Positions 9,460 through 30,669 of a DNA stretch of 32,000 nucleotides are shown here, piece by piece. This stretch comes from Ktedonobacterales bacterium. Lineage in GTDB: Bacteria; Chloroflexota; Ktedonobacteria; Ktedonobacterales; JADMIN01. The number at the start of each line of letters is the position of its first letter. Within the stretch, counting starts at the first letter, position 1. Where the stretch lies: the NCBI GenBank assembly GCA_030167145.1, contig CP126532.1, positions 1,110,001-1,142,000 of the forward strand, in the 5' to 3' direction. A model generated the notes under the pieces. The model saw only the letters and a program-made list of their open reading frames with translations. It was not told where the DNA came from and ran no database searches. Position numbers and translations under genes: made by a program.

Positions 9460-9485
9460 TGGGCACGGAATGTGCGCGGACTTTT

Positions 9486-10948: not shown

Positions 10949-10969
10949 GCATCGGTATAGCAAACGATA

Positions 10970-16133: not shown

Positions 16134-16646
16134 CTACTGCCCTCCATTATTGTCCGGCGTATCTGGGGTGTCCGGCGCGTCTGGCGTGTCGGTTGACCCT
16201 TTGATCTCAGTGGCGGCGACGCTGCCATCGGCCTGGCGAGTGCCCTCGATGGAGAGTGTCATGCCCTGATGTACGCTGGCGAGCGAAGTCAATCCATCCT
16301 TGTATTCGACGTTTGCGGGAACGCTCACGGTGACGCAACCCTGCCCAACCGTCATGGTGAGCATGGCCTGCGTGGTATCTACCTGCGCTACCGTGCCGTC
16401 TACTTCTAACGACTGGTCATCGGCCTCGGCAGCAGACATGCTCACTGGCGCGCACGTGTTCGCCGCAAGGCTTGCGGGGCCACTCGCGGGGCCAGAGTTG
16501 GTGACTGAGCCGCTCTGATATTGCAGCGGTGGCAGTGGTGAGCCAGATGTGTTGCGCGCCGCCGCTGAGACGATGCCTCCGGCAAGGAGCGCGGCAACAG
16601 CACAGATGGCAAACAGCATCAGGATTGGTCGGATAGAGCGGAACAT
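16134..16646 (-). CDS. Secreted DUF5666-like protein with a C-terminal (D-T/A-P) repeat tail
   Basis: SD aaggagg; signal peptide MFRSIRPILMLFAICAVAALLAGG. LEVDGTVAQVD...VTVSVPANVEYKDGLTSLASVHQGMTLSIEGTRQADGSVAATEIKG resembles DUF5666. The tail is TDTPDAPDTPDTPD. It converges on the SBP gene with only 8 nt between the stops. Confidence 0.65.
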   Translation of the reverse strand: MFRSIRPILMLFAICAVAALLAGGIVSAAARNTSGSPLPPLQYQSGSVTNSGPASGPASLAANTCAPVSMSAAEADDQSLEVDGTVAQVDTTQAMLTMTVGQGCVTVSVPANVEYKDGLTSLASVHQGMTLSIEGTRQADGSVAATEIKGSTDTPDAPDTPDTPDNNGGQ

Positions 16647-16775
16647 CGGGGTGCCTCCTTTAGGCGGAAATCAACTGGGTAACGTTGCGTTGAACAGAGG
16701 GAACACGTGTCTGGCTTTGGTCTGGTCTGCGCTAGCGTGCTACCATTGCGCCTCCTTTCGTCTGGGCTACGCGCG

Positions 16776-16952
16776 CTATGCAGCTTGTTTCGTGCTGGCG
16801 GTCCGTCGCGCTTCGGGTTGCCGTGTGGGATGCTCGTGGTGTAGCTCGCGGAGCCAGCCGCTGGCGGTGGTGTGGCCGCAAATCGTGCAGCTTCGCATGA
16901 CGGATGGCCGATGGTAGGTCACGCCACAGAATTGGCATTGGTAGGTCGTCAT
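16776..16952 (-). CDS. Small zinc-ribbon protein (58 aa), not in the ORF track
   Basis: Hand translation of the minus strand gives MTTYQCQFCGVTYHRPSVMRSCTICGHTTASGWLRELHHEHPTRQPEARRTASTKQAA, ending in TAG. It has CxxC-x12-CxxC. SD gaaagga lies 10 nt upstream of the ATG, 36 nt after the ATP-grasp stop. Third-codon positions are GC-rich, unlike the competing 84-aa frame. Confidence 0.55.
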   Translation of the reverse strand: MTTYQCQFCGVTYHRPSVMRSCTICGHTTASGWLRELHHEHPTRQPEARRTASTKQAA

Positions 16953-16988
16953 GGCTGGTGCATCCTTTCGTGTTGCTGGTTGCCACCG

Positions 16989-17846
16989 CTAGGCAGCGCT
17001 GGATTCCGAGGAGCGAACGAGACGCCGTACATCGTGGCGCGAGACCGCGAAGAGGCTGGCGTCTGGCGACAGCGCGTAGTTCATGACGTAGTCAGCGAGC
17101 AGGGCCGCCGCGTTGGGGATGCCTTTGTAGCTGGGGAAGTAATTCAGGTCAATGACCACTGGGCCGTCTGGACCCTCGATGACATCCAGGCCATAAAGGC
17201 GCAGGCCGAAGACCCGACCGCAGCGCAGCGCAATGTCGCGTACCTCATCGCTGACAGGGCAGGCAATCCGTTGTGCGCCATCCCACGACTGCTGCTTGCG
17301 CACACCGAAGACGTGATTCCCGATCACCGCGACTTTTAGCTCTTCGCCAGGGATGAACTCTTGCACGAGCATCGGCTGCGATGGCACGGGCAATTGCTCC
17401 AGTTCGCGCAGTGTGTGCGCTTGCACCACGCCAACGCCGCGTCCGCCGATGTACGGCTTGAGGATGAGCGACCGCTCCGCGGCTACTGGGCGTAGCAGGT
17501 TGAGGTCGCCCGTCACCCACGACTGTGGTGTGGGGATGCCAGCGGCATCAAGGCAGCGCTGCGCGACGATCTTGTTGTGCGCCGAGAGACAAGCAAGATA
17601 TGGGTTGAGGATGCGAGCGCCCTGGCTGTGCAGGATGCCGGCCATGCTGAGCCACATCGCCGTATGCGACTTCAGCACATACAGGTCATGCTCGGCTACC
17701 AGACGTCCGGGGTCGGTGACCATCTCATCGGCCACACCCAGTTCGACTTCATGGCCCTCGCGCCGCAGGATGTCGAATAGCTCGACCAGCACCGGATTCG
17801 GCTCAAGTGTGTTGCGTGTGAACGCCAGCATGAAATAGATCTTCAT
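16989..17846 (-). CDS. RimK-type ATP-grasp ligase (paralogue 2)
   Basis: ATG 17846 follows SD gaaagga. ATP-grasp motifs: ILKPYIGGRGVGVVQA, MLVQEFIPG, LKVAVIGNHVFGV, GLRLYGLDVIEGPDGPVVIDLNYFPSY. Colinear with 21122..21955. Confidence 0.8.
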   Translation of the reverse strand: MKIYFMLAFTRNTLEPNPVLVELFDILRREGHEVELGVADEMVTDPGRLVAEHDLYVLKSHTAMWLSMAGILHSQGARILNPYLACLSAHNKIVAQRCLDAAGIPTPQSWVTGDLNLLRPVAAERSLILKPYIGGRGVGVVQAHTLRELEQLPVPSQPMLVQEFIPGEELKVAVIGNHVFGVRKQQSWDGAQRIACPVSDEVRDIALRCGRVFGLRLYGLDVIEGPDGPVVIDLNYFPSYKGIPNAAALLADYVMNYALSPDASLFAVSRHDVRRLVRSSESSAA

Positions 17847-17969
17847 GGCCGCAATCCTTTCGATCATCGTCTCGTATCCGGGCGCTTCGTCCGTTCTCGT
17901 CGCTATCCCGTACGTGGGGTCTTGCGATGTCTCAAGTCTGCCCGGAAAGTGGCGCGCATACCACGAAGA

Positions 17970-18042
17970 ACCCGTAGAATGACCCGTAGAAGTGGCCGGA
18001 GGAGCGGAAAGCAGCGGAATCGGGTGGAGAAAGCAGCGGAAT
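17970..18042. promoter_or_regulatory. Two pairs of exact direct repeats in the 300-nt gap upstream of ATP-grasp paralogue 2
   Basis: acccgtagaa occurs at 17970-17979 and 17982-17991 (12-bp period). gaaagcagcggaat occurs at 18007-18020 and 18029-18042 (22-bp period). Confidence 0.5.
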
Positions 18043-18146
18043 GTCACTGGTAGTTCCAGCCCGACGCGCGGGATGGCTACGTCCAGGACGCGCCGCGCGT
18101 GGTGATCAGCGGAAATAACATGTCCTGCGGCGAAGTGAGGAGAAGG

Positions 18147-21119
18147 TCACGGGCGGAGGGAGAAACGGCGCTCGGTCTGTTGATCTTCGGCGTTGGCACC
18201 GATGAGCGATTGCAGGCGATGGCGCTCGATGGCCAACGCCAGAGACTCACGCAGGGCGGGAGTAGTGGCGAGCGCTTCGAGGAAGTCGCTACGGCGCAGC
18301 GCCAGCACAAGCGACGGCTGGAGCGTTCGCGTGGTGGCGGGGGCGAGGGCGTCTTCGAAGAGCGCCGTTTCACCGAAGTAGTCGCCATCTTCGAGGGTGG
18401 CGACAGTACGCTCACGCCCAGACGCTGCTGATGTGGTGACAGCGACTCTGCCACGCGCAAGGATGAAGAAGGTGTCGCACGGCTGTCCCTCTGTCGCGAG
18501 GGTGACACCAGCGTCGAAGTGTGTGGAGTGGAAACGGCGGGCAAGCTCGGCCAGCGCATCGGCTTCCAGATTGGCAAATAGCGGCACGGTGAAGAGTGGG
18601 AGCGCACGCAGGCGCGACATATCCAGGGTTGCCGCCTGCCCATCAGGGCTAACCTCGACACCGTGCTGTTTCTGCCATAGCTCGTAATAGAGGCCCTTGC
18701 GAGCCAGTAGCTGCTCGTGAGTTCCGTATTCCGCCAGCTTTCCATCCCGAAGCACGTTAATACGGTTCGCGTGTTGCACGGTAGCCAGCCGGTGCGATGT
18801 GGAGACTACCGTGCGATTCCTCGCCAACCGCTCCAATGTCTGGGAGATGGCAGTTTCGGTGGCGGGGTCGAGCGCGGAGGTCGGTTCGTCGAGGACCAGT
18901 ATCGCTGGGTCGCGGACGATGGCGCGGGCAATGGCGACTCGCTGGCGCTGGCCGCCGGAGAGCAGGCTGCCCATCTCGCCGGTTTCAGTGTCGTAGCCTT
19001 TGGGCAGGCCGACAATCAGGTCGTGGATCTCCGCCGCACGCGCAGCTGCTTCGATCTCAGCATCGGTTGCGTTGAGCTTGCCGAAGCGAATATTCTCGCG
19101 GATGGTGGTGTTGAAGAGGAATGTGTCTTGGAATACCGCCGCCATTTGCGCGTGGAGAGATGCCTGTGTTCCCTGCCGGAGATCCATGCTATCCAGTACT
19201 ACCGCGCCTGCGCTTGGGTCGTAGAAGCGCATCAACAGGTTGAGGATTGTCGTCTTGCCTGAACCACTTGGTCCGACGAAGGCGATATACTGGCCTTTCG
19301 GAATCGCCACGCTCACGTGATCCAGAATCGTGAGGTCGTGTCCATATTGGAACGACACATCCTCGAAGCGAACGGCACTCGCGAGGCGCGGCAAAGCCAC
19401 TGCATCGGGCGCATCGCGCACATCTACCGGCGCGTTCAGCAATTCATCTACACGCCGCAATGCGCCAGAAGCGCCGATCAGGCTGGGGGCTACTTTCTTG
19501 GTGAGATTGTAGGCCTCACCAAGCAGGAAGCCAAACAAAATGTAGTTGTAGGCAAGCGCGCCACCGTTCAACTGGCCTTGCACCACAAGCACCGCACCCA
19601 CCAGTACAAACACGACATTGACCAGGAGTACGCCCTGGGTGGAGGCCGTACCCACCGTCTGCGAGAGAAAGTTTGCGCGCACGGCATTCGAATATAACTG
19701 TGCCAAATGCTGCTGAAGGCGGGCGAGCGCGGTAGATTGCAGGCCAAAGACTTTGATGACCGGCTGCGCTTTCACATTCTCTTGCACGGTGCTGGCGAGC
19801 GCGGCTTGCGCACGCTTGAGACGATACGTCTCGCGCGAGGCAGGCGCGGCGAAGAGGCGTGTACCCACCATCAGCAGCGGCAGCGCCAACAGAATCACCA
19901 GCGCCAGCCGCCACTGGCTGAGCGCTATCGCAGTGGTGAACCAGATGATGTTGATGATCGAATAGAAGCCGTCGGCGATTCTGCTGGTGACGAGCTTATC
20001 TATATCAGAGAGGTCGCTGGTAAAACGCGCGACAATGTCACCAGTCTGAGCATGGGCGTAATAACCTATCGAGAGACGCTGCATATGCGTAAACAGCTTG
20101 CGTCGCAGATCGTTGAGGATCTTTGCACCGACGCGCGCACCGAGAAAGTCTTGCAGGGGACTGGCGAGTGCGTTGATGATGAACCACACGATTAACTGCA
20201 CCGCGATAGCGGCGAGCAGCACGGTGAACTCATTTTCATCGAAATGCTCTGCGGATGTGGCGTTGATAATCTTTTGTAAGCCATCGGCGAAAATGGTTTT
20301 GAAATTGTCCTGTGCCATCACCGTCAGCCCGATGACGACGGCCGTGAGCCAGTAGGGCCGCCAGTAGCCAATCGCGCGCCAGAGCACCCAACCCAACCCC
20401 GGTTCCGGCTGGCGCGCAGCGCGTATCGTCGCCTGCCACTCGTCTTCCAGTGTGGACAGCGGCTTGCCATAGACAGTTTCGAGCGCGACCTCTGGGCGGA
20501 CATTGTTCAATTCGTGTGCGAATTGTCTGTAACGCTCCAAGCCGTAGGACGCAATGAGCTGCGCAGTGAAGGATGTGGCGGCGAGCCGATAATGCTGCTG
20601 GTCGCGCTGCGCTGGCCCGGAGAAGAGATCGTCGAGTGTGACCATACGGCGGCGTTTGGCGAGCGCCACCTGTGTCTTCTCAAGGTCTAGCTCGCGCTGC
20701 TGCACGGCTAGATAGCCCAACATACCTTCGAGCAGCACTGGTATGTGCGCGGCACGCTCGCCAGCCGCAGCGCTCAGCAGCAGCGAGGCAAGCGCACGGC
20801 GCACAATTTCGACACTTGCGCCCAGCGGCAGCACAATCGCCGGCACTGGACCGACGGGCATTGTCTCCCCGCTGTCATTGCGTGGGTAGGACGTTGTATC
20901 CGCGCCTTCTAACGTGACCGTGACCAGATCATGCGGCAGCGCCAGCGTGCCGAGTAGCTCCGCCAGCCCGCCCCAGGCGGCTTCCAATTGGGTGACAATG
21001 TGTTCGATGTGCTTCTGTGATGTCGCCCTGGGGGGATAGCGGATTACGAAGTGCGACGAACGCTGTTCGCCCGTATTGTCCTGAGTGGCTAGCTGGTCAC
21101 GTTTCACGTGTGCCTCCAC
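18147..21119 (-). CDS. Four-domain ABC exporter: N-terminal peptidase-MA-like (degenerate) domain + 6-TM exporter TMD + NBD + C-terminal cyclic-nucleotide-binding-like domain
   Basis: GTG start 2 nt after the upstream ATP-grasp stop. TMD from about aa 245. NBD motifs: GPSGSGKTT, LSGGQRQRVAIARA, ILVLDEPTSALD, STSHRL. C-terminal cNMP fold: LFANLEADALAELA...FFILARGRVAV...GDYFGETALF. The N-terminal 240 aa contain no Cys and show FVIRYPP, LLEGMLGYL, SFTAQLIASYGLERYRQF and VYGKPLSTLEDEWQ. Confidence 0.85.
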   Translation of the reverse strand: MEAHVKRDQLATQDNTGEQRSSHFVIRYPPRATSQKHIEHIVTQLEAAWGGLAELLGTLALPHDLVTVTLEGADTTSYPRNDSGETMPVGPVPAIVLPLGASVEIVRRALASLLLSAAAGERAAHIPVLLEGMLGYLAVQQRELDLEKTQVALAKRRRMVTLDDLFSGPAQRDQQHYRLAATSFTAQLIASYGLERYRQFAHELNNVRPEVALETVYGKPLSTLEDEWQATIRAARQPEPGLGWVLWRAIGYWRPYWLTAVVIGLTVMAQDNFKTIFADGLQKIINATSAEHFDENEFTVLLAAIAVQLIVWFIINALASPLQDFLGARVGAKILNDLRRKLFTHMQRLSIGYYAHAQTGDIVARFTSDLSDIDKLVTSRIADGFYSIINIIWFTTAIALSQWRLALVILLALPLLMVGTRLFAAPASRETYRLKRAQAALASTVQENVKAQPVIKVFGLQSTALARLQQHLAQLYSNAVRANFLSQTVGTASTQGVLLVNVVFVLVGAVLVVQGQLNGGALAYNYILFGFLLGEAYNLTKKVAPSLIGASGALRRVDELLNAPVDVRDAPDAVALPRLASAVRFEDVSFQYGHDLTILDHVSVAIPKGQYIAFVGPSGSGKTTILNLLMRFYDPSAGAVVLDSMDLRQGTQASLHAQMAAVFQDTFLFNTTIRENIRFGKLNATDAEIEAAARAAEIHDLIVGLPKGYDTETGEMGSLLSGGQRQRVAIARAIVRDPAILVLDEPTSALDPATETAISQTLERLARNRTVVSTSHRLATVQHANRINVLRDGKLAEYGTHEQLLARKGLYYELWQKQHGVEVSPDGQAATLDMSRLRALPLFTVPLFANLEADALAELARRFHSTHFDAGVTLATEGQPCDTFFILARGRVAVTTSAASGRERTVATLEDGDYFGETALFEDALAPATTRTLQPSLVLALRRSDFLEALATTPALRESLALAIERHRLQSLIGANAEDQQTERRFSLRP
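18240..18611 (-). other. cNMP-binding-like domain of the ABC exporter
   Basis: Beta-roll motifs G.LATEGQPCDTFFILARGRVAV and GDYFGETALFEDALAPATTRT. By eye, the phosphate-binding cassette Arg (canonical P-R-S-A-T) appears replaced (A-P-A-T-T). Confidence 0.65.
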
Positions 21120-21121
21120 GG

Positions 21122-21955
21122 TCAGGCATGGGCTGGCATCTGCGCCGATGGTGTCACGGGTTCACCGTGTATCGCGCGCTCGCCTGCGGCATAAATGTAG
21201 TCAGCGAGAAGCTCAGAAGCGTTAGGAACCCCCATGTAGCTGCCAAACTTGTTCAGATCAACGACATAGGGCACGCCGCTGATGATGACATCCAGCCCGT
21301 AGAGGTCTATGCCGAACGCCTGCCCGCAGCGCAGCGCAATGTCGCGTAGCTCCGCCGATGGCTCGAATGGCTGTCCGCGCTTGTCTTCATAGGTGCGGAT
21401 TGGCCACACACGGCGAATACCGAAGACGCGCTCGCCGATGCGGAAGAGTTTGTGATCGTAACCCTGAGCGTCATCGGGCGCATGATAACGCTGGGCCAGT
21501 AGCAGGTCGTCTTCGGGCAGGCCTTCCAACTCGTCTGGTGTGCGAATGACACGCACGCCACGGCCACGTGTGCCGCGATACGGCTTGAGAATCAGTGGTC
21601 CAGTGGCGAGCAAGGGCACGAAATCGCTAGCGTTACTGGTCATGTAGGTATCGGGCACAGGCACGCCTGCCGCTTGTAAGGCCCGCATGACAATCACCTT
21701 GTTGCGCAGCATCTGCACCGTCGGATAGGGATTGAGTGTGAGCGCCCCCAGCATGTGCAGCGAACCGCCAATGCTGAGCGCTGGCTCAGTTCCCGATTTC
21801 AGCAGATACAGGTCGTTCTCGACACGCACGTCGGCAAGGTTGGTCATCTGCTTTTCGGGGAAGATTAGTTGCAGCACCACGCCTCGCTCGGCCAGTAGCC
21901 GCATCAATTGCTCCATTGTCGGATTCAGCCAATCCGCGATCACGCCGATACGCAT
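21122..21955 (-). CDS. RimK-type ATP-grasp ligase (paralogue 1)
   Basis: ATG 21955 follows SD aaggag. Motifs: ILKPYRGTRGRGVRVI, LLLAQRYH, HKLFRIGERVFGI, GIDLYGLDVIISGVPYVVDLNKFGSY. The track start at 22051 lacks an SD and adds a low-complexity extension. Confidence 0.8.
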   Translation of the reverse strand: MRIGVIADWLNPTMEQLMRLLAERGVVLQLIFPEKQMTNLADVRVENDLYLLKSGTEPALSIGGSLHMLGALTLNPYPTVQMLRNKVIVMRALQAAGVPVPDTYMTSNASDFVPLLATGPLILKPYRGTRGRGVRVIRTPDELEGLPEDDLLLAQRYHAPDDAQGYDHKLFRIGERVFGIRRVWPIRTYEDKRGQPFEPSAELRDIALRCGQAFGIDLYGLDVIISGVPYVVDLNKFGSYMGVPNASELLADYIYAAGERAIHGEPVTPSAQMPAHA

Positions 21956-22051
21956 GCTGTGACTCCTTCTGTCCTGGTGGTAAATGCGGCCAGCATCCTT
22001 GTGCTGGACCGCTCGAAACCCAACCCACACGCATCCTGGCACATCTGCCAA

Positions 22052-22981
22052 CTACGAAGCCCCCATTGCTGGGATTACTACACGCAGCGCCCCGGCAAGC
22101 TCGCCCGCGGTATCGAAGCGATCTTCCGGGCGCTTGGCCAAACAACGCAAGATGACCTCCTCCAAAGCCGTGGGAAGCTCAGGATTGAGCAAGTGCGGCA
22201 TTGGCGGTGGCGTAAAGACATGCATGTGCAGCGCATCGCGCAGGCTGGTAATGTGAAACGGCGGATAGCCGGTGGCCATCTCGTAGAGCACCACACCGAG
22301 CGCATAGATGTCACTTCGCGCGTCAAGCGGCCGGCCACGACATAGTTCTGGTGGCATGTATGTCGGCGATCCCAACATCAGCCCGGAGCCGAGTAGCACG
22401 CCGGTGGTGGTCAACTCACTGCTGCTTTCCGCAAGCTGGGCCAGTCCGAAATCGGTCACCTTGAGGGTGTACGCTCCAGTGTCATCGGCGAGCATGGCAG
22501 GATGGTCCAGCAGTAGATTGCTCGGCTTGAAGTCCTTATGCACGATGCCGCGCGCATGAGCGTGCGCCAGTCCTTCCGCCGCCTGGCAACCGAGACTCAC
22601 CGTGAGCATGATAGGAAGCGGCTGGCCGGGCGGCTGTTGCTGCATGAACATTTTCAGCGAGCCAGCGGTTACTGGCTCCATCACAATGAAGCAAACGCTA
22701 TCTTCTTCGCCGAACTCTAGAATGTGGACGATATGCGGATGTTGGAGCGCGGCAACTCTCTCAAACGTGGCGTGGAATCGCGTGGGAAAGGCGGGGTCGG
22801 CGGCATTGGCAAGCTGGAGCACTTTGATGGCGGCGTGCTGCGCGCGATACAGATGGGCGCCGAGATAGACATCACCCGTCGCACCATGCCCGATGATCGC
22901 CTCGATACGATAGGCGCCTAACGTGCCACCAACAAGACTGGCCATTGCTTGCCTCCACGGGACGCCGCCCCGTGCCGCCAT
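22052..22981 (-). CDS. Soluble Hanks-type Ser/Thr protein kinase (non-RD: HKD catalytic loop)
   Basis: Motifs: GHGATGDVY G-loop, AIKVL Lys, IVHKDFKPSNLLL, VTDFGLA, GSPTYMPPE. No TM segment or extra domain. ATG at 22981 overlaps the upstream TGA (TGATG). Confidence 0.85.
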   Translation of the reverse strand: MAARGGVPWRQAMASLVGGTLGAYRIEAIIGHGATGDVYLGAHLYRAQHAAIKVLQLANAADPAFPTRFHATFERVAALQHPHIVHILEFGEEDSVCFIVMEPVTAGSLKMFMQQQPPGQPLPIMLTVSLGCQAAEGLAHAHARGIVHKDFKPSNLLLDHPAMLADDTGAYTLKVTDFGLAQLAESSSELTTTGVLLGSGLMLGSPTYMPPELCRGRPLDARSDIYALGVVLYEMATGYPPFHITSLRDALHMHVFTPPPMPHLLNPELPTALEEVILRCLAKRPEDRFDTAGELAGALRVVIPAMGAS

Positions 22982-25929
22982 CACACCTTCGCCAGCGCGG
23001 AAAGCGTCCGCTCGACCTGCTCAAGATAGAGACGCTCCCCAAGCGCGGTGAGCAGCGCCGCCGCCGCATCCAAATGCGTATGCGCGTTCTCGGGGATGCC
23101 TTGTTGGGCCGCGAGCATGCCGTATACATACAGCACGCGCGCTTCACCATACGGCCAGGGCATCGCGCGGCAGAGCAGCAGCGCCTCGTCCAGGCTGCGT
23201 GCCGCCTCTACCATCTGCCGCTCGCGCAACGCGATCAGCGCGGACACCCGTAACGCCTCGACCTGCGCGAGCTGGTTCTGCTCGGCCACGGCGCGCGTCA
23301 GGCTTTGTGTCGCCAGGACACGCGCCTGCATCACGTCGCCCAGTTCGAGCCGCACCCAGGCCAGCAACGCGACCGGATGCGCCGCGCTCTCGCCTGCCCG
23401 TGAGCTTTGCTTCGCGAAGAGCCGCGCCAGGCGCGCATCGGCAACTTCTGGATGTTCGGAGAGCAGATCACGCTCGACCAGTGAGGTCAGGGCATTCTGA
23501 AGCGCCTGGAGATCGCCGCTACGCTCGGCGACGGCAATCGCCTCGCCCAATGACTGCGTGGCCGCTTCCCATTTGCCCTCAAGCAGCGAGAGATGCCCAA
23601 GCCCCAGGAGCGGATATGAAGATGCCCAGGCCGTCTCGACCTGCCGCATCATCGCCAGCGACTGCTCGAAGTCCGCGCGTGCCTGCTTCCAGCGTCCGGT
23701 GTACATGCCAAGCACACCCTGATAGTAGGTCATGTGGGCGATTTGCACGGTATCATTAAGCTGCTGGGCGACGGCGAGACTGCGATCAATATAGGCGCGA
23801 CCGCGCTCGAATTCGCCTCTGCGGATGTAGGCGAGCGCCACATGATGTAAGGCGTGCAGGTGGCTGGAGAGATCCCCCAGTTCCTCAGCCTGGGGAATCA
23901 CCTCCTCCAGCGCGGGGATTGCCTCCGCCGTCCGGCCTAGGGTGAGTAGCGCTGTGCTACGCCACTGCTCGGCTTGAGTATGCAAACGCTCGTCGCCTAG
24001 CGCGTCTGCGACCGCCATCGCCCGTTCAGCGGCAGAGAGTTGCTCACGATACTGCCCACTCACATATGACAGGTCGGCGAGTGCAATGTAGAGGGCGGCC
24101 AAGCCAGGTGACGGCTCTGCCGCGTCCGCGCCGCGCAGGAGCGTCTGGATGCGCGCCACACCGTCACTGGCAGTGCCACGTCGCGCATGGATGCGTCCCT
24201 GCTGTGCGGTGGCTTGCCAGAGGCCTTCGCGGTTGCCGGTGCGGCGATAGACCTGCACCGCCGCGTCCAGTATTGTCATTGCCTCATCATAGCGGGCGGA
24301 GAGCCGCAGCACCGCGCCCAGCTTTTCTCGCGCACGCGCGGCATCGGTGGCGCGCCCCAGTTCATCGAGCCGAGTCACAAGCTGGCGATAATAGTCTTCT
24401 GCTACTTTGTTTGCGTACATTGCCTGCGCGCGATCACCAGCGCGTTCCAGGTAGATCACGGCTTTCTCGCGTTCTCCGCAGTGGGTAAAGTGATAGGCGA
24501 GTGTTTCGGCTGGCGTGGCTGGTTCATCGTGTTCGAGCGCTTCGGCAAGCTGGCGATGGAGTGCAGCGCGGGAGGCTGCGCCCAGATCATTCCAGACTAC
24601 ATCGCGCACCAAGTTATGCACGAACTGGTAGGCATCGTCACCGGTCTCCATAAGCAGTCGTGTCCGGCAAGCCACATCCAGCGCCAGCAACATATCCCGC
24701 TCGTCGCCATCCAGCCTCCGCGCAACCGTCAGCAGCGTGGTGCGTGTGAGTGGCTGGCCCGCGACCGCCGCCGCCGCCAGCAGATCTCGTGCGGACTCCG
24801 GAAGCGCCGCAATACGCTGGCGCACTGTCTCAGTCACATTCCACGGAACATCCTTACCTGTGGCCGCAGGCAGGGTGCCCTCGCGCAGTCCATCGGCGCA
24901 GCTTACCAGAAAGAACGGCACCCCACCCGCGCGGCTCGCCACCTCGGTGCGCAGCGTCGCAGGTGTGGCATCAGCGTCTGGCAGAAGCCGCGCGAGTAGC
25001 AATTCACTATCGGCTGGTGAGAGCGGGCCAAGCTGGCTCTGCGCCACCAGGCCAGCACGGACAAGATCTGCTAATGCTACGGCGAGCGGCGAGCGCGGCA
25101 CTAGCTCGGTGTCGCGGTATGCGCCAATGATGCGCAGTGGTGTCGCCGCAGGCGATTGCAGCAGCGCCAGGGCAAGTTCCAGCGCATCAGCGTCGGCCCA
25201 TTGCAGATCGTCGAGGAGCAGCAGTGTGCCAGCGGGGCCAGCGATGGCGGTGAGAAAGCGACTTACGGCGCTAAACATCAGCCGACGTTCTTGCTCCGGG
25301 GCTAGGCCCATTGGCGGAGGCAGGAGCAGTCCGTCACCGGTGAGTTCGGGCAGTAAACGCGCCAGCCACCCACATTGCCGCAGATCGCCGCGCAACCGCG
25401 CAGGCGGCTGACCGCTGATGTAGCGCTGCAGCGCTTCGAGCACGCAGGCGTATGGCTCCTGACCGCCGCGCTGGGCGTTGCCGCCGCGCAGTGTCTGCCA
25501 GCCACTAGCCGCGCCCCGCGCCGCCGCTTCGCGCAGCAGCCGCGATTTGCCGATCCCCGGCTCGCCAGCGAAGAGCAGCACTGGTGGTCCCTTGCCCGCA
25601 AGGTGACGGTCGAGCAGCGTCAGATCGGCGTCGCGCCCTACGAGTGGCGGCGGGACATCATCCGATGGCGCGTACGCTGTCAGCGGCGCGGTATCTCGGT
25701 GCCGTGCGGCTGCCGTAAAAAGCGCGCGATCTCGCTCGACGAGACCGAGCGCATCCGCCAGCAGCGCGACGGTATCTTTATGTGGCGCACGACTCACCCC
25801 GCGCTCCAGCGCACTGATCGCCTCCACGCTCAATTCGGCGCGCTCGGCTAGCTCCTCTTGCGTCAGGCCAGAGGCGCGCCGGAAGCGTTTTAGCAATGTG
25901 CCAAATGTGAGCGATTGCCCTTCAAGCAT
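22981..25929 (-). CDS. XRE-type HTH + AAA/STAND NTPase + TPR-repeat regulator
   Basis: N-terminal HTH (SGLTQEELAERAELSVEAISALERG). Walker A is LLFAGEPGIGKSRL; Walker B is LLLLDDLQWAD. A long C-terminal TPR-like helical repeat region follows (recurring A..Y...A....G). The start lies 6 nt after the upstream kinase stop. Confidence 0.85.
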   Translation of the reverse strand: MLEGQSLTFGTLLKRFRRASGLTQEELAERAELSVEAISALERGVSRAPHKDTVALLADALGLVERDRALFTAAARHRDTAPLTAYAPSDDVPPPLVGRDADLTLLDRHLAGKGPPVLLFAGEPGIGKSRLLREAAARGAASGWQTLRGGNAQRGGQEPYACVLEALQRYISGQPPARLRGDLRQCGWLARLLPELTGDGLLLPPPMGLAPEQERRLMFSAVSRFLTAIAGPAGTLLLLDDLQWADADALELALALLQSPAATPLRIIGAYRDTELVPRSPLAVALADLVRAGLVAQSQLGPLSPADSELLLARLLPDADATPATLRTEVASRAGGVPFFLVSCADGLREGTLPAATGKDVPWNVTETVRQRIAALPESARDLLAAAAVAGQPLTRTTLLTVARRLDGDERDMLLALDVACRTRLLMETGDDAYQFVHNLVRDVVWNDLGAASRAALHRQLAEALEHDEPATPAETLAYHFTHCGEREKAVIYLERAGDRAQAMYANKVAEDYYRQLVTRLDELGRATDAARAREKLGAVLRLSARYDEAMTILDAAVQVYRRTGNREGLWQATAQQGRIHARRGTASDGVARIQTLLRGADAAEPSPGLAALYIALADLSYVSGQYREQLSAAERAMAVADALGDERLHTQAEQWRSTALLTLGRTAEAIPALEEVIPQAEELGDLSSHLHALHHVALAYIRRGEFERGRAYIDRSLAVAQQLNDTVQIAHMTYYQGVLGMYTGRWKQARADFEQSLAMMRQVETAWASSYPLLGLGHLSLLEGKWEAATQSLGEAIAVAERSGDLQALQNALTSLVERDLLSEHPEVADARLARLFAKQSSRAGESAAHPVALLAWVRLELGDVMQARVLATQSLTRAVAEQNQLAQVEALRVSALIALRERQMVEAARSLDEALLLCRAMPWPYGEARVLYVYGMLAAQQGIPENAHTHLDAAAALLTALGERLYLEQVERTLSALAKV

Positions 25930-25935
25930 GGGTGA

Positions 25936-28900
25936 TTACCTTGGTGGAACGAGCGGCAGAATAATTAGCTTCTGGCTGTGCTCATATGCGGTCTCCACTC
26001 CTGCCTCGTTGGGAACGGGGTCTATCGTTTCGTCATTGTCAATGTTCTGCCCAGACAACGCGATTCCCGCTAAGCGGTTGATTTCGTCCGCAAGTTTTGG
26101 GTCAAAGTTGTTGTCAACCGCTATGGCAATTGCATCCTGCTGGACCGTGGTAAGCCACTTTCTGGCATCGTCGGTGGCAATGACCACATGGCCGGAATGC
26201 AGTTGAATCTGTTTGCTCGCGTCCGATGCTTTCGCCGCCTGCACGACATAGTTTGCGACATTCGTGAGATAGCCGGTTGGGCCTAGGAGGCCAACACCGT
26301 CATCCGTAGGGAAGATCTTTCGGTCGAGACATGCCAAACCAAGCTGACGATAGTCGGGGCCGCTCGTGCCTTCGAGAATATTCAGGATGTTCTGTGCGGC
26401 GCAATGCGGTGTAATCTGCAATGATGGCTGCATGAGGCTCGGTAGTTGTCCCGCCTGGCTGGCAAGTGCCTGTGCCTGCTGTAGCAGCCCTACCACATAC
26501 CCCTCCTGCTTCGGCGTTTGCGGCGCACTGACCAGCAGGTATTTGATCTGCGCGAGAGCTTTCGGAGGCAATGCGCCCCGCAAAACGACCTTCCCCGTCG
26601 GCGCGCTGACGCTTCCCTGCTCCTGGGTGATCTCGACTGCATCGCCCAATGACAGGAGATTCGTGCCCGGCTGGCCTGTTGAACCGTTTCCTGAGTAACT
26701 TAAACTCCAGCTTTTGTCCGCCTGTTGTGCCAGTATGCCCAAGGAGAGCGCTTTCTGCGTCTGACTGTCTATCAGCCATGCTAGATACTGAGATCCTTGC
26801 GGTGGAGCTGGAAGGCTGGGAATCTGTATTTTGAGGGCATCGGTATTTCCTTGGCCATATTGTCCATCCGCAAAGAATACTTGCGCAGTCTGCGCGGATG
26901 TTCCCCCTCCCGGCGGGGAAGTTTGGGTCGTTTTCCTGTTTTGCAGCAGGCTGAAGATGCCTAGCGTGCCACCGACAATGGCGACCAGCGCGACTAGGGC
27001 GATCAATTCCTTGGCAAAGCGGCGGTGCAGGAATCCTGGGCGATCTGCGCCGCGCTCCGGCGGGGCGGGCTTGACGGGGGGTGGCGGCGCGGGCGGGCTT
27101 GGCGCGAGTTGGCGCATCGGCTCTGGCGGCGTGGAGGCGGGTTGGGCGCGGCCACTGACGCCATCCGCACGACCGATGGGGGCAGTGGGCGGAGCTGGAG
27201 TGCTCGCCAGGGTGGGAGTTTGTGAGACGGCAGCGGATGTCATGGGCGCAATCGCTGCCTGGCCCGATGTAGCCCCCACTGTGGATGCGGTGAGCGATGC
27301 TCCCGCGCCGCCGCGCCCGATGACGCGCCGATAGGCCGATGCCAATTCGACAGGATGCTGAAAGCGATGTTCTGGTTCTTTGGAGAGCGCGCGTGTCAGC
27401 ACATTCTCCAGCCCAGGCGGCACGTCTTTGCGCCAGCGCCGAAGCGGTGGAATCGAAGAGTGCAGATGTTGCTGCGCAATGTCATCGGGAGTTGTGCCGG
27501 TGAATACCGGATGACCAGCGAGCAAGTGGTACAGCACCGCTCCCAGCGCGTATACGTCGGTGTATGCGCCGGTAGGATTGCCGAGCAGTTGTTCGGGGGA
27601 GCATGCCTCGCTTGTCACGTAGAGCGGCGACCCCTGTATCTGCCCATCCTGCTGTGGCGCCAACTCGCGCACGGCAAAATCGCCAACCACCACACTGCCG
27701 TCGGCCCGCGCAAAGATACAGTTCGCAGCCAAGCCAAGGTGGAGGATGCCTTGTTCGTGGGCGTGACTCAGCGCGGCGGCTGTCTGATCCACATAGGTCG
27801 CGATGGTTGTGAACTCCAGCAGATCGTTGTGCTCGACGAGGGCGCTTAGGGATGGTCCCGAAGGATCGGGCATCACCAGATAGGGCGTGCCGCGAAAGAT
27901 GCCGAAGTCTGTCACTGGCAAAATGTTGGGGTGATGCAGTGCGGTCAGATTCAGCGCCTGTTCCTCGAACCGCTCTGGATAGGCGGCACGCTCGGCGGGC
28001 GCGAGGTTTGCCAGTTGTGCGAAGGTGCGCAGACGATAGATGGCGCTCTCGTCATCGCGCGTGGTCATATACACATTGCCAGTCGTAGTGCTCGCGACAC
28101 GCCGCACTATGCGGTAGCCATCGAAGTCTACTCCCACCAGAGGATCTTGAGGATCACTTGGGCGATCATCGGCTACACCATCGCGAACGCTCGACGCTCG
28201 CCCGGTATAGGGGAGATCCGCTGCGTCGAGCGCCACCGCGCGCGCGCCGAATCCTGTGGCGAAGGGCCAGATGCCGCTGGGCGCGGCACCCGCATCTGGC
28301 GTGGTGATGGTCGCGAGACCGGCATGGAACGCCTCCGCCATTGCGCCCGCGCTGGAAAAGCGATCTCGCGGCTCCTTGGCGAGCGCGCGCATTATCACGT
28401 CCTCGATGGGCGCGGGCAGTTCGGCGCGCAGTAGTCGGGGCGCGGATGGCGTTTCCTGCAAATGCTGAAGCGCGACGGCAAGCGGGGTATCGCCGTGGAA
28501 TGGCACCTGGCCCGTCACCATTTGATACAGCACCACGCCCAGGGCGTAGATGTCGGTGGCGGGGGTGACTGGCTCACCCTTGACCTGCTCTGGCGCCATG
28601 TAATAGGGCGTGCCCAGCACCTGTCCGGTCCGCGTCAGCGTCGCGGGGCCTTCGCGCGTCAGCGCGTTGTCGCCACTATCGAAGATACGCGCGATACCGA
28701 AATCGGTGAGATAGACGTTGCGATGCTCATCCAGCAGGATGTTGGTGGGTTTCACATCCCGATGCACGACCCCCTGCTGATGCGCGGTATCCAACGCGCT
28801 CGCTATCTGTGTAAGATAGCCCGCGATCTCACTCAGCGGTAATGGCTCCAAGCGGTCGGCAAGCAGGCTACCCAGCGTACCGCCGACGATGACCGGCATA

Positions 28901-29190
28901 ATCATGTACGTCATTTCATCGTCGTCGCCGTAACTCAGCACAGGTACAATATGCTCGTTGCGGAGCTTGGAGGCCGCGTGCGCCTCGCGCAGAAATCGTC
29001 TGCGGAAGCTCGCGTGGTCGGCTACCAGCGTCGTCGTCTGATAGCTCAGAATCTTCACCGCCACCAGGCCGTGATGGTCGTCGAGTTGCTGGCCCAGATA
29101 GACAACACTGGTGCTGCCGGTGCCCAAGACACTCAGGAGCCGGTAATTTTCGATGATAGAGCCGAGTCGGCTGTCGCTGGTAATAGCCAT
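25936..29190 (-). CDS. Receptor tandem kinase: active Ser/Thr kinase + pseudokinase + Pro-rich linker + TM helix + RskA-like extracytoplasmic domain + unknown C-terminal domain
   Basis: Kinase 1 (aa ~15-285): VAVKIL, VVHRDVKPTNILL, LTDFGIA, YMAPE. Second kinase fold (aa ~356-622). TM helix: LIALVALVAIVGGTLGIFSLL. The ectodomain has YLAWLID and ITQEQGSVSAPTGKVVLRGAL, resembling the anti-sigma-K RskA C-terminal domain. Confidence 0.85.
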   Translation of the reverse strand: MAITSDSRLGSIIENYRLLSVLGTGSTSVVYLGQQLDDHHGLVAVKILSYQTTTLVADHASFRRRFLREAHAASKLRNEHIVPVLSYGDDDEMTYMIMPVIVGGTLGSLLADRLEPLPLSEIAGYLTQIASALDTAHQQGVVHRDVKPTNILLDEHRNVYLTDFGIARIFDSGDNALTREGPATLTRTGQVLGTPYYMAPEQVKGEPVTPATDIYALGVVLYQMVTGQVPFHGDTPLAVALQHLQETPSAPRLLRAELPAPIEDVIMRALAKEPRDRFSSAGAMAEAFHAGLATITTPDAGAAPSGIWPFATGFGARAVALDAADLPYTGRASSVRDGVADDRPSDPQDPLVGVDFDGYRIVRRVASTTTGNVYMTTRDDESAIYRLRTFAQLANLAPAERAAYPERFEEQALNLTALHHPNILPVTDFGIFRGTPYLVMPDPSGPSLSALVEHNDLLEFTTIATYVDQTAAALSHAHEQGILHLGLAANCIFARADGSVVVGDFAVRELAPQQDGQIQGSPLYVTSEACSPEQLLGNPTGAYTDVYALGAVLYHLLAGHPVFTGTTPDDIAQQHLHSSIPPLRRWRKDVPPGLENVLTRALSKEPEHRFQHPVELASAYRRVIGRGGAGASLTASTVGATSGQAAIAPMTSAAVSQTPTLASTPAPPTAPIGRADGVSGRAQPASTPPEPMRQLAPSPPAPPPPVKPAPPERGADRPGFLHRRFAKELIALVALVAIVGGTLGIFSLLQNRKTTQTSPPGGGTSAQTAQVFFADGQYGQGNTDALKIQIPSLPAPPQGSQYLAWLIDSQTQKALSLGILAQQADKSWSLSYSGNGSTGQPGTNLLSLGDAVEITQEQGSVSAPTGKVVLRGALPPKALAQIKYLLVSAPQTPKQEGYVVGLLQQAQALASQAGQLPSLMQPSLQITPHCAAQNILNILEGTSGPDYRQLGLACLDRKIFPTDDGVGLLGPTGYLTNVANYVVQAAKASDASKQIQLHSGHVVIATDDARKWLTTVQQDAIAIAVDNNFDPKLADEINRLAGIALSGQNIDNDETIDPVPNEAGVETAYEHSQKLIILPLVPPR
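27325..28125 (-). other. Pseudokinase domain (second kinase fold of the tandem kinase)
   Basis: The catalytic loop reads HLGLAANC instead of HRDxKxxN (Asp and Lys lost). DFA replaces DFG. IYRLRTF replaces the VAIK Lys strand. The fold markers HHPNILPV, GTPYLVM and DVYALGAVLY are retained. Confidence 0.7.
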
Positions 29191-29242
29191 GGTTAGCTCC
29201 AGTCCTGGCTCACGAAGAAGTCAGTGGAACTATTCCCAAGCT

Positions 29243-29289
29243 GGCGCACAACCTTGCGCCCTCTAGTAGCTCGGGTTGTAGCTCGCGTT
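29243..29289. promoter_or_regulatory. Inverted repeat plus tandem 12-mer in the putative promoter region of the kinase operon
   Basis: ggcgca (29243-29248) and tgcgcc (29255-29260) form an inverted repeat. gtagctcgggtt (29266-29277) is directly followed by gtagctcgcgtt (29278-29289), matching at 11 of 12 positions. These lie 55-100 nt upstream of ATG 29190. Confidence 0.35.
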
Positions 29290-29497
29290 GCCACGATGCG
29301 CTACTCTGCGTAAGCGCGAGACGCGCTCTTCATACACGCGCGAAAAATGCCGGGAAGGATCACGGTAGATGCGTGGAATAGCGGTTGGTGGCGGCCATAC
29401 ACATCCTCATGCATGTAAGAACGCGCACACGTTACTACGATGCCGAACATCAGCAAACCGAGGTGGAATACTGGGCGCAGCCCACCTGAGCCGCGGC

Positions 29498-29542
29498 CTG
29501 GACGGGAAACTTTCCAACATATCATTATGTCTTGTTTCCCGT
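29498..29542 (-). terminator. Terminator-like hairpin downstream of the patatin gene
   Basis: A perfect 11-bp stem: ggacgggaaac (29498-29508) and gtttcccgtcc (29532-29542). The loop contains a further acata/tatgt pairing. It lies about 50 nt after the stop at 29593. No U-tract. Confidence 0.45.
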
Positions 29543-29592
29543 CCATGTGCAACCTATCGTATTCAGACCTTGTGGCCATTCGCTGTATGTTT

Positions 29593-30669
29593 TCATGCAG
29601 GAACGGCCATAGTTGAGGTATGTATAGTCGCAGATTGCATGCCGCGCTCAGCGGGTAGGGCAGCGCGCAGATAGTCGCGCGTGGCGAAATAGGCGCGTTC
29701 GATCCACGTGGATGTGTCGCGGAAGCTGAGTGTGCCGCCACCATCGCCCGTGGCGAGACTGATGATATGCGTTTCGACATGCGCGGGCACACGCTCCAGC
29801 GCACGCTGAATCTGGTAATTGCCCATCACCTGCGATGCCCGCTGAATCGCTGCGGCGGTTGAGCGGGATGTGGGCCATCGCGCGGATGTGGAACGTGCGG
29901 CGGACACCCATGGCGCGCCGCCGTCGCCTTCGGTGTCGTAGCCAATGGCGAGAACGAAGATGCGCTGTGCGCCCAGTTCAACCGCTGTCTCGATGCTACA
30001 GCCGTCCACCGCCCCACCATCGGCGTAGTAGTTATTGCCGATACGCACCGGCGGAAAGATGCCCGGAATCGCCGATGACGCGAGCACGGCGGGCGCGACG
30101 GCCCCACTCTTGAAGACGGCTCGGCCACCATGGCTGAGATCGGTGGCGATGACGCGCAATGGCAGGGCTAGCTGCTCAAACGTGTCGTCGCCAAGGTACT
30201 GTGCCACGATCTGCCGCATCCCCACATCGCTATAGAGCGATGCGGAGCCATTCGCGATGCGCCGCAGCGCGCTGACGAGCAGCATGCAGCGCAGCATCAG
30301 CGACGAGATGCGTGAGGAGCCACGGCCCAGCAGCACCTGCGCTGGCCGCAATCCGCGCCACACCTCGGCGAGTTGTTCGACGCCCGCCAGCGTTGGCATG
30401 CGAGCGAGCCACGCAGCATTCCAGGCGCCTATCGAGGTACCTACCAGCATGTCGGGGTGTTCGCCATATTCGAGCAGCGCGCGCATCGCCCCAACGTGTA
30501 GTGCCCCGCGCGCCCCGCCGCCAGAGAGGACAAACGCTGTGGCTGGGCGCGTGCCGTGCCATGAGCCAGAGCGCAGACGTGCGCGCATCCGCAGGCTCTC
30601 GGATGGCAGCCATGAATCTTCCAAATCTGCCTGTTTCAGCGTTTCGGCGTTGCATTCGATTAACCGCAC
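29593..30669 (-). CDS. Patatin-like phospholipase
   Basis: GTG start after SD aaaggag. Motifs: LSGGGARGALHVG oxyanion motif, GTSIGA (GxSxG nucleophile), ADGGAVD (catalytic Asp, DGG). Confidence 0.9.
   Translation of the reverse strand: MRLIECNAETLKQADLEDSWLPSESLRMRARLRSGSWHGTRPATAFVLSGGGARGALHVGAMRALLEYGEHPDMLVGTSIGAWNAAWLARMPTLAGVEQLAEVWRGLRPAQVLLGRGSSRISSLMLRCMLLVSALRRIANGSASLYSDVGMRQIVAQYLGDDTFEQLALPLRVIATDLSHGGRAVFKSGAVAPAVLASSAIPGIFPPVRIGNNYYADGGAVDGCSIETAVELGAQRIFVLAIGYDTEGDGGAPWVSAARSTSARWPTSRSTAAAIQRASQVMGNYQIQRALERVPAHVETHIISLATGDGGGTLSFRDTSTWIERAYFATRDYLRAALPAERGMQSATIHTSTMAVPA

Follow-up and report, generated by a model that had tools for sequence, protein, structure and literature searches.

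What does a Ktedonobacterales bacterium make with two ATP-grasp enzymes and an ATP-binding cassette (ABC) exporter whose genes lie directly beside those of two protein kinases and a transcription regulator? The question is raised by a locus in a window of 32,000 nucleotides, taken from positions 1,110,001-1,142,000 of a metagenomic contig (CP126532.1; JGI 3300045419 Ga0494333_323), in which seven genes, here called A to G, run on the minus strand. The initial annotation of these genes proposed a pathway that ligates and exports a peptide or protein tail. In our view the locus may instead direct the synthesis and export of an anion derived from a polyol phosphate, with the ATP-grasp enzymes D and F and the pump E as its core and with control resembling that by AfsK/AfsR in Streptomyces; we give this interpretation a probability of roughly 0.5.

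Organization of the locus

The seven genes, their domains and every junction described in the initial annotation were confirmed by the open reading frame (ORF) map, Pfam and NCBIfam. The first gene, A (25936-29190), encodes a membrane receptor protein of 1084 residues with two Pkinase regions, a transmembrane segment and an ectodomain. A gap of 6 nt (25930-25935) separates it from B (22981-25929), which encodes a STAND-class transcription regulator with an XRE-type HTH_3 domain, an AAA_16 NTPase domain and TPR repeats. The junction with C (22052-22984), the gene of a soluble Ser/Thr kinase (Pkinase), reads GTGATG, so that the stop codon of B (TGA) shares 1 nt with the ATG start of C, or 4 nt with an alternative GTG start. 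A gap of 96 nt leads to D (21122-21955; ATP-grasp, D-type subfamily, 277 residues) when its start is placed at the ATG at 21955, the start that aligns with homologues. The gene for the pump, E (18147-21119), which has a type-I exporter fold and two extra domains, begins 2 nt after D (14 nt under the public gene call). It is followed after 300 nt by F (16989-17846; ATP-grasp, F-type subfamily, 285 residues), and after a further 36 nt by G (16776-16952), which encodes a zinc-ribbon protein of 58 residues.

The same-strand run exceeds this seven-gene module. Ten minus-strand genes follow one another unbroken from 16134 to 31479, the other three encoding a secreted DUF5666 protein (16134-16646; Pfam DUF5666, 27.6 bits), a patatin-like phospholipase (29593-30669, the public gene call starting at 30486; Pfam Patatin, E = 5e-34) and a 217-residue ORF (30826-31479).

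The ATP-grasp enzymes D and F

D and F are paralogs with 41% identity and represent two conserved subfamilies of one uncharacterised ATP-grasp family. A word-indexed search with F returned 631 homologues with 45-70% identity from Chloroflexota, Acidobacteriota, Actinomycetota, Gemmatimonadota, Rokubacteria, Eisenbacteria and proteobacterial metagenome-assembled genomes (MAGs). The D/F family as a whole is present in at least eight phyla, mostly from soil, and most of its carriers are soil MAGs; Pseudonocardia aurantiaca JCM 11838 (L080) is an example of a carrier in culture. A scan of one genome per species gave 162 relatives of F, of which the best 80 were examined by ORF clustering and a tblastn census; individual loci are cited below by an L and a number. 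In these loci the D-type, the F-type and a third type form separate conserved clusters that co-occur, and most loci hold two to four paralogs.

Neither enzyme is a housekeeping RimK, LysX or GshB, because the scores against all curated equivalog models are 4- to 10-fold under the cut-offs. Against the RimK equivalog PRK10446, D and F score 29.1 and 31.1 bits (cut-off 331); the scores are 41.4 and 63.5 bits for LysX (TIGR02144, cut-off 275.6), 37-70 bits for MptN (cut-off 350) and, for F, 16.6 bits against the graspetide model TIGR04187 (cut-off 350), with the CofF model likewise far under its cut-off. On this point the initial annotation, which was to be abandoned if the ligases nested inside housekeeping clades, stands. 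At a broader level, Pfam RimK gives 32.5 bits for D and 47.4 bits for F, the latter above the cut-off, and NCBIfam rimK_fam gives 52-81 bits against a cut-off of 143. F also matches the inositol-phosphate kinase model PF05770 (Ins134_P3_kin) at 38.5 bits against a cut-off of 23, with residues 127-255 covering profile positions 78-200 of 201. For D this match is borderline (22.8 bits), and it is precomputed for nearly all of the 120 F homologues listed.

Two local features set D and F apart from the ligases. In GshB and RimK the acyl-phosphate is held by a loop of the form (D/E)xRxNxxxGG, FRSNLHRGG in RimK; both alignments place a nine-residue deletion in D and F there, and the nearby arginine (R193) is replaced by Val in most F-type and by Asp in most D-type sequences. 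The second feature is the motif VIDxNYFPxY, of ITPK type, which is common to D and F. The Mg/substrate segment of F reads VIDLNYFPSYKGIP...LLADY, compared with VIDINYFPGYAKMP...VLTDF in maize ITPK1 and VMEVNSSPGLEGI in RimK; within it VIDLNYFPSY of F aligns with VIDINYFPGY of maize ITPK1 (PDB entry 7tn3), where RimK has VMEVNSSPGL. Asp233 and Asn235 are invariant in 57 F-type sequences; among 49 D-type sequences Asp233 is invariant and Asn235 is kept in 40. The ITPK Mg/substrate motif (hhDxNxFPGY) and the absence of the ligase loop are therefore found together in this family. Conserved basic residues were tried as a further discriminator between kinase and ligase and failed, since RimK and ITPK1 are both basic at the equivalent positions.

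Comparison with the two groups of characterised enzymes gives a divided picture. D and F share with RimK, LysX and ArgX the three-domain ATP-grasp fold, the ATP-binding lysines, the QE hinge and a glycine loop GxxGxGV. They differ from these ligases in having DxN rather than ExN at the Mg site, in the deleted FRSNLHRGG loop and in their partners, which are polyol-phosphate enzymes and not S6 or a LysW-type protein with an acidic C-terminus. With ITPK1 of maize, human and Entamoeba, F shares the C-terminal VIDxNYFPxY...P...L.D(Y/F) pattern; the ligase loop is missing in both groups, and genes for myo-inositol-1-phosphate synthase (MIPS) and phytase-type enzymes adjoin related D/F loci. Unlike ITPK1, D and F match mainly in the C-terminal half, and the AHGxxSH loop with its catalytic or substrate-binding histidines is replaced by GGRGxGV. 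The ITPKs known so far come from eukaryotes and Asgard archaea alone (PMC8024741), and no such activity is known from bacteria. We regard the D/F family as a hybrid of ligase and ITPK features; sequence alone does not settle whether its members are kinases or ligases.

These data bear directly on the proposal of the initial annotation, in which D and F, as RimK-, LysX- or graspetide-like enzymes, would build or tail a peptide or protein, G would be the carrier or the substrate and E would export the product by way of its N-domain. The nearest sequence and structural relatives of D and F are indeed RimK, the graspetide ligase PsnB and ArgX/LysX, whose carrier LysW is a zinc-ribbon protein, but the curated ligase equivalogs score far under their cut-offs and the acyl-phosphate loop is deleted. 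No conserved small precursor ORF was found among 84 loci, in agreement with the initial annotation, which had seen no graspetide precursor. A graspetide or other ribosomally made, post-translationally modified peptide (RiPP) system was rejected, given the lack of a precursor gene, the TIGR04187 score and a likeness to PsnB at the level of the fold only. The Anaerolineae offered one candidate precursor, the small ORF f25, which was also rejected: it is a helical protein of about 80 residues (ATVTxFVPIFIxR) and not a RiPP leader or core. In Anaerolineae and one beta-proteobacterial MAG its gene directly precedes that of the F-type enzyme (L023 9743-9997; also L019, L021, L024, L027, L028, L029 and L031), and the window lacks it.

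Partners of the family across phyla

The genes that recur beside the D/F family suggest what it may act on. A major facilitator superfamily (MFS) gene is present in 67 of 83 loci and in all 67 it lies directly downstream of the family member on the same strand. Three loci without it (the window, L002 and L015) have an ABC gene at that position, and L010 has a FUSC/ArAE gene there. As one exporter class is replaced by unrelated ones, efflux is the probable direction of transport. The MFS proteins of most phyla have anion and organophosphate carriers as their closest models.

The second group of partners consists of enzymes that form polyol phosphates. A gene for MIPS follows F in L001, L005 and L006 and closes the D-ABC-F-MIPS operon of L015. 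A gene resembling mannitol-1-phosphate 5-dehydrogenase (M1PDH-like) is found in 12 of 13 actinobacterial, six of eight Anaerolineae and 21 of 33 acidobacterial loci; loci from beta-proteobacteria, Gemmatimonadota, Rokubacteria and Eisenbacteria carry one too. The alignment is full-length, with 233-276 bits against cut-offs near 360. Because one hexose-phosphate-to-polyol-phosphate enzyme replaces another between lineages, the substrate is likely to be a polyol phosphate.

The third partner is a beta-propeller phosphatase resembling phytase (PF02333, E = 1e-102), which is encoded in 27 loci and on the operon strand in 24 of these. The acidobacterial operons have the order G1-G2-G3-MFS-G4-phytase-NHL-(FHA-kinase-MFS), where G1 to G4 are ATP-grasp genes, with tight junctions and a divergent FHA-TPR-receiver gene. 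In L065 (8284-19222), which is typical of about 25 loci of Blastocatellia type, the operon has eight genes: three ATP-grasp genes, the MFS gene and a fourth ATP-grasp gene precede those for two secreted proteins (a phytase-like phosphatase and an NHL propeller protein) and for an FHA-kinase-MFS fusion, and divergent FHA-TPR-receiver and M1PDH-like genes lie alongside.

The phosphatases also invite a salvage interpretation, in which phytase-like enzymes trim phytate, the transporter imports lower inositol phosphates and the ATP-grasp enzymes, by a reversible reaction of ITPK type, transfer phosphate to ADP or redistribute it. The ITPK1 reaction is reversible, the cassettes are found with secreted propeller proteins (phytase-like, NHL, DUF3616 and SGL), and most carriers are soil MAGs, all of which would suit such a pathway. 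We nevertheless consider it the least probable of the alternatives, and only a slender chance, as in some genomes the MFS protein gives way to an ABC protein of type-I exporter fold or to FUSC/ArAE efflux, MIPS and the M1PDH-like protein are entry enzymes of synthesis, and the window locus has no phytase.

The same partners inform the chemistry of D and F under the polyol-phosphate interpretation. A route to inositol polyphosphates that is independent of lipids, through MIPS and ITPK1, is established (PMC6900528; PMC8024741). On account of that route and of the MIPS and phytase context, we slightly favour a kinase over a ligase. ITPK-like phosphoryl transfer to polyol hydroxyls is accordingly our tentative choice, and acyl-phosphate ligation of a carboxylate onto the polyol is nearly as likely.

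Conservation of gene order

In six of seven Ktedonobacterales loci the order A-B-C-D...F-DUF5666 is kept. Six other Ktedonobacterales loci have patatin first, then the genes for the tandem kinase, the HTH-AAA-TPR protein, the kinase, the D-type and F-type enzymes and DUF5666. In L001, L006 and L010 the position of patatin upstream of the kinase block is conserved; outside Ktedonobacterales the gene is confined to one locus. DUF5666 is the conserved last gene, following F in six of the seven. As protein identities fall as low as 39-44% for the ectodomain of A, this synteny is being kept by selection. Loss of gene order in related genomes would have counted against the initial annotation, and the order proved to be conserved within Ktedonobacterales.

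Three further loci repeat the pairing of ATP-grasp and ABC genes. In a second Ktedonobacterales genome (L088) the order B-C-D-E recurs, with an AAA-TPR protein, a kinase, a D that is 80% identical and an ABC protein with the same N-domain. L015 (2598-7535), from a soil MAG binned as Deltaproteobacteria, is a tight operon of a D-type gene, an ABC exporter gene, an F-type gene and the gene for MIPS, and represents the minimal form of the system. A gene for a propeller protein of SMP-30/gluconolactonase type lies upstream of these four genes. L002 (8064-10903) lies on the window's own 5.07-Mb contig, near 4.58 Mb, and pairs a plain 614-residue ABC exporter with an F-type gene 59% identical to F, without kinase genes and without a copy of the cis-element described below. 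Since L088, L015 and L002 all repeat the pairing, the linkage of D and E is not accidental. In L010 (10001-12368) the F-type gene stands apart from the kinase block and adjoins patatin, and the next gene encodes an efflux protein of FUSC/ArAE type, an exporter of a third class, unrelated to the others, in the same place.

Taken as a whole, the ATP-grasp pair, an exporter and Ser/Thr-kinase/STAND signalling form a unit kept together by evolution, as the initial annotation had supposed; its conserved linkage is seen in the A-B-C-D...F-DUF5666 order of six of seven loci, in L088 and in L015. The idea of a fixed seven-gene operon did not survive, as the E slot is variable, G occurs in two of eight related loci and F has a conserved promoter-like element of its own. 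No description of this cassette was found in the literature searched, and PADLOC gave no specific match. The PADLOC matches on the window were generic (kinases, nucleotide-binding domain, HTH, TPR and patatin), with none for D, F and G; a role in anti-phage defence was rejected because none was specific to the non-kinase components.

The pump E

E combines an N-domain (residues 1-250; 20370-21119), a transmembrane domain (19521-20291), a nucleotide-binding domain (18660-19325) and a cyclic-nucleotide (cNMP)-type domain (residues 867-952; 18264-18521). PF00664 (121 bits) and PF00005 (115 bits) match in one polypeptide, as in a type-I exporter half-transporter. The best curated matches are MsbA-related lipid exporters (403 and 366 bits), all MsbA scores being under the cut-offs, and an NCBIfam model named 'cyanophycin metabolism-associated ABC transporter' aligns with E from residue 162 onwards. 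With the ATP-grasp-linked ABC proteins of L002 (55.6%) and L015, the core of E shares 55-56% identity. The 80 best metagenomic relatives of E are at most 45% identical to it and most carry a cNMP domain; D/F-type ATP-grasp neighbours were found for none of these 80, and the ABC+cNMP family as a whole is not tied to ATP-grasp genes.

The N-domain belongs to a small family, with 51 cluster representatives among 1.8 billion proteins in an exhaustive representative search; a word-indexed homologue search with it gave no match. Eight of nine complete relatives tested repeat the four-domain architecture, and a tenth protein ends at a contig edge. An AlphaFold2 (AF2) model of the N-domain (pLDDT 84) matches the catalytic domains of MA-clan metallopeptidases, all with weak E-values; these include collagenases H and G (TM-score 0.53-0.57) and M1, M30 and M61 enzymes. 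Peptidase_MA_2 scores 17.4 bits against a cut-off of 32.4 and is a weak match in six of 15 members of the N-domain family. Where HExxH should lie, the helix of E has the sequence VRRALASLLL (LERALxxLLL being the consensus of the family), and an E/DGxxG element alone is left, so the N-domain is a catalytically dead MA-clan (gluzincin) pseudo-peptidase. The description of this domain as peptidase-like in the initial annotation is thus borne out by the modelled fold, yet as a domain that has lost its activity. No C39 cysteine peptidase domain was found in E by Pfam or N-domain profile searches, again as first noted.

The cNMP-type domain (PF00027, 74 bits) keeps the GE pair; the arginine of the phosphate-binding cassette (PBC), judged against a CRP reference sequence, is an alanine in E (ALAPATT), most relatives having PRTAT. 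As the PBC arginine is missing, classical binding of cAMP or cGMP by E is doubtful, and a true cyclic-nucleotide input on the pump is not upheld. E resembles ABC exporters with N-terminal accessory domains (C39 or C39-like, of bacteriocin or type I secretion systems) in being a half-transporter with a cytoplasmic, peptidase-derived N-domain, and it resembles NHLP-type exporters with cNMP-like domains in carrying a domain of cyclic-nucleotide type. It differs from C39 exporters in that the fold of the N-domain is MA-clan (gluzincin) and not papain-like, with HExxH lost, and from exporters with N-terminal accessory domains in that its cNMP-type domain is C-terminal and without the PBC arginine.

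For a peptide product, the MA-clan peptidase fold of the N-domain and the alignment with the cyanophycin-associated transporter are points in favour, but the domain lacks HExxH and is absent from the ATP-grasp-linked ABC proteins of L002 and L015. The MsbA-like scores suggest another possibility, that the patatin protein deacylates inositol phospholipids, D and F modify the head group and E flips the lipid or a derivative outward. Patatin is syntenic and shares the cis-element with F, other proteins with the N-domain, ABC and cNMP architecture adjoin genes for cNMP-NTE-patatin, diacylglycerol kinase and PAP2 proteins, and MIPS is adjacent in relatives. We judge a lipid pathway of this kind to be very unlikely, however, since no gene for a CDP-alcohol phosphatidyltransferase or phosphatidylinositol-phosphate synthase was found in any locus, patatin has the narrow distribution noted above, the transporter in most phyla is an MFS protein nearest to anion and organophosphate carriers, and the MsbA scores are under the cut-offs.

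Signalling proteins and the repeat element

The kinase domain of A at residues 16-286 is of active Hanks type. A second kinase region follows at about residues 360-620, then a transmembrane segment at about 715-735 and an ectodomain of about 340 residues. Because HLGLAAN and DFA stand in the second region for HRDxKxxN and DFG, this region is a predicted pseudokinase. The similarity of the ectodomain to RskA_C is weak and under threshold (E = 2.4e-4); across six related loci it is 39-44% identical. C keeps the VAIK lysine and the HKD and DFG motifs. The block of Ser/Thr kinase and HTH-AAA-TPR protein (B) stands upstream of D in six of seven Ktedonobacterales loci and in L088. Elsewhere, Ser/Thr-kinase or FHA proteins accompany the D/F family in several phyla (Acidobacteria, Anaerolineae, Actinomycetota), as FHA-STK-MFS fusions and FHA-TPR-receiver proteins in Acidobacteria; in Ktedonobacterales ABC-FHA proteins do so. 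A 654-residue PP2C-type phosphatase, a possible counterpart to kinases A and C, is encoded about 6-8 kb to the left of the window start (L087 2156-4120).

A predicted direct-repeat promoter/operator element occurs twice in the window, on the minus strand, compared with no match expected from shuffles of the sequence. The first copy (30759-30789), upstream of patatin, reads TTTTGCGGGTGATTCTGCGGGTTCTCCATGG and is followed about 19 nt later by GCACACT. The second (17961-17991), in the E-F gap, reads TTCTACGGGTCATTCTACGGGTTCTTCGTGG and consists of two direct repeats, TTCTACGGGT-CA-TTCTACGGGTTCTTCGTGG, with GCAGACT 19 nt on. The element also lies upstream of F-type genes in L001, L005, L006, L007 and L008, of patatin in L006, of DUF5666 in L010 and of small genes after the ABC-FHA gene in L001 and L007; copies were located at L001 9874-9907 and 15846-15876, L006 6-36, L007 12065-12095 and L010 560-590 (minus strand). 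The 31-nt element with its GCAxACT box thus seems to mark a small Ktedonobacterales regulon that reaches past the seven-gene module, and its layout looks like that of an activator site replacing a -35 box.

Since the repeat element precedes F and patatin, F, G, DUF5666 and patatin are probably the regulated targets, and A to E a tight upstream unit that would be co-transcribed across junctions of 1 to 96 nt. A single operon of 12.4 kb is disfavoured; the data support a functional module, extending to 16134 and 30789. The initial annotation had bounded the module by a terminator-like hairpin after the patatin gene. A hairpin after the patatin stop codon (29498-29545) is real, with a 12-bp stem and z = -3.26, but it has no T-run and the intrinsic-terminator scan did not call it. 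A general promoter and terminator scan of the window gave matches at chance level only, and Rfam found no family in it.

In Streptomyces, AfsR, an activator of the STAND ATPase-TPR type, is phosphorylated by the Hanks kinase AfsK and binds DNA at direct repeats in the -35 region. The window shows a similar arrangement: a membrane-associated Ser/Thr kinase (A) adjoins a protein with a DNA-binding domain, an NTPase domain and TPR repeats (B), direct repeats stand in for the -35 box at two promoters, and window proteins give weak NCBIfam matches to AfsK and AfsR. The systems differ in that the DNA-binding domain of B is an XRE-type HTH_3 and not SARP, and in that A is a tandem kinase-pseudokinase with an RskA_C-like ectodomain. 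By analogy, A (receptor kinase/pseudokinase) and C (soluble kinase) would phosphorylate B, which may then activate the F(-G-DUF5666) and patatin promoters by binding the 31-nt direct repeats that overlap their -35 regions.

It could be argued that the A-B-C block and patatin regulate something else and neighbour D-E-F through synteny inherited in one order. Every locus with the A-B-C block is from Ktedonobacterales, the L015 operon has no kinase gene and the PADLOC kinase matches are generic only. Such a juxtaposition seems improbable to us, as the synteny has outlasted divergence to 39-44% identity in the ectodomain of A and to 37% in the N-domain of E while the flanks and the D-F slot were rearranged, junctions are as short as 1-6 nt, and in Acidobacteria, Anaerolineae and Actinomycetota the ATP-grasp family occurs together with STK/FHA proteins of unrelated architecture.

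The zinc-ribbon protein G and flanking genes

G has two CxxC pairs (Cys6, Cys9, Cys22 and Cys25), an ASGWL motif and a basic, non-conserved tail. Its sole homologue, at the same position in L008, is 42% identical and keeps all four cysteines and ASGWL, with an unrelated tail. The C-termini read ...TASTKQAA in G and ...SSRVS in the homologue, neither ending in Glu. G is an accessory component. The gene begins 36 nt after F, a point in favour of a carrier or substrate role in peptide or protein ligation, but a LysW-like carrier was rejected, given the tail and the presence in two of eight loci only, and no Lys/Arg pathway genes, including LysY, LysZ, LysJ and LysK, were found among the window proteins. 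With no conserved precursor, the RimK loop deleted and partners across phyla that are sugar-alcohol-phosphate and phosphatase genes, we consider the peptide or protein-tail product of the initial annotation unlikely.

At the left end of the window, cut by its edge, lies a plus-strand gene (6-1193; complete gene L087 7469-9976) for an ABC exporter with a C-terminal FHA domain. Its counterpart in relatives is two to three genes downstream of F, after MIPS; here the gene is displaced by about 16 kb through rearrangement and has no adjacent MIPS. Other genes in this part of the window encode a large Fer4/Pyr_redox protein (4117-6087, minus strand), a sulfur-handling cluster (about 7035-10950; L087 16035-19731) of DsrE-like, YgaP-like transmembrane and TusA proteins with two pyridine-nucleotide-disulfide oxidoreductases, and a toxin-antitoxin-like pair (12965-13466; L085 17642-18143) in which a 73-residue ORF is followed by a 95-residue ParE-like protein.

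Proposed pathway and significance

Under the polyol-phosphate interpretation D, F and E would be the working core, making and secreting a small anionic metabolite built on a sugar-alcohol phosphate. The precursor in the Ktedonobacterales lineage would most likely be myo-inositol 3-phosphate formed from glucose 6-phosphate, on which D and F could carry out two successive ATP-dependent steps. E would export the product, and its dead N-domain and degenerate cNMP-type C-domain may serve as cytoplasmic gating or ligand-sensing modules.

Several observations weigh against this interpretation. By overall profile and fold D and F are nearer to carboxylate-amine ligases than to ITPK: a PDB profile search ranks RimK first (6e-22), then PsnB and ArgX, and then ITPK1 (2e-11); hhalign gives probabilities of 98.5% for RimK and 96.3% for ITPK1; and an AF2 model of F (pLDDT 89) gives Foldseek TM-scores of about 0.73 with ArgX, LysX and RimK and 0.67 with ITPK1. 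The loop KPYxGGRGxGV of D and F is a ligase-type glycine loop, the ITPK histidine loop KxxxAHGxxSHxM being absent, and the third paralog type in other phyla carries the ligase-type ExN. Six related loci lack the pump in the D-F slot, which is empty there or holds other genes (GNAT, a 392-residue unknown), and other proteins with the N-domain, ABC and cNMP architecture have unrelated genomic surroundings, which in some cases are lipid-related. The interval 1,101,218-1,142,000 of the genome contains no MIPS, M1PDH-like or phytase gene, and MIPS was also sought in that interval beside this genome's ABC-FHA gene, its place in relatives, with the same result; the polyol link at the window locus is for this reason one of orthology only. 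The binding of B to the repeats and the identity of the product are proposals.

Among known systems, the clusters for mycosporine-like amino acids combine a sugar-phosphate cyclase with the ATP-grasp ligases MysC and MysD. In outline, the loci described here are like them in having an entry enzyme that yields a cyclitol or polyol from a sugar phosphate, followed by at least two ATP-grasp steps and a transporter; they are unlike them in that the ATP-grasp subfamilies are probably unrelated and there is neither an O-methyltransferase nor a DDGS/EEVS cyclase.

A bolder form of the polyol-phosphate interpretation holds that D and F are bacterial relatives of ITPK that phosphorylate inositol or mannitol phosphate, in a lipid-independent pathway, widespread in Acidobacteriota, Actinomycetota, Chloroflexota and further phyla of soil, by which bacteria make and secrete polyol polyphosphates. 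Its components would be a polyol-phosphate synthase, two to four such kinases and an exporter; some phyla would add a secreted phytase-like phosphatase, and Ktedonobacterales would add Ser/Thr-kinase control. We regard this as possible but doubtful.

The ATP-grasp family is large, coupled to exporters and 45-70% identical over at least eight phyla, and its product is probably a common secreted metabolite of abundant, hard-to-culture soil bacteria. The Ktedonobacterales version offers a tractable example, in which a receptor tandem kinase and a STAND regulator appear to be wired to a 31-nt promoter element. If D and F are ligases, the product would be a new class of polyol conjugate. If instead they are kinases of ITPK type, bacteria would possess a pathway of their own leading to polyol polyphosphates. 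The current view assigns inositol-phosphate kinases to eukaryotes and Asgard archaea (PMC8024741), and the origin of soil inositol phosphates is unresolved (PMC5984642). A true kinase pathway would be a candidate microbial source of these compounds, and their origin would become directly testable.

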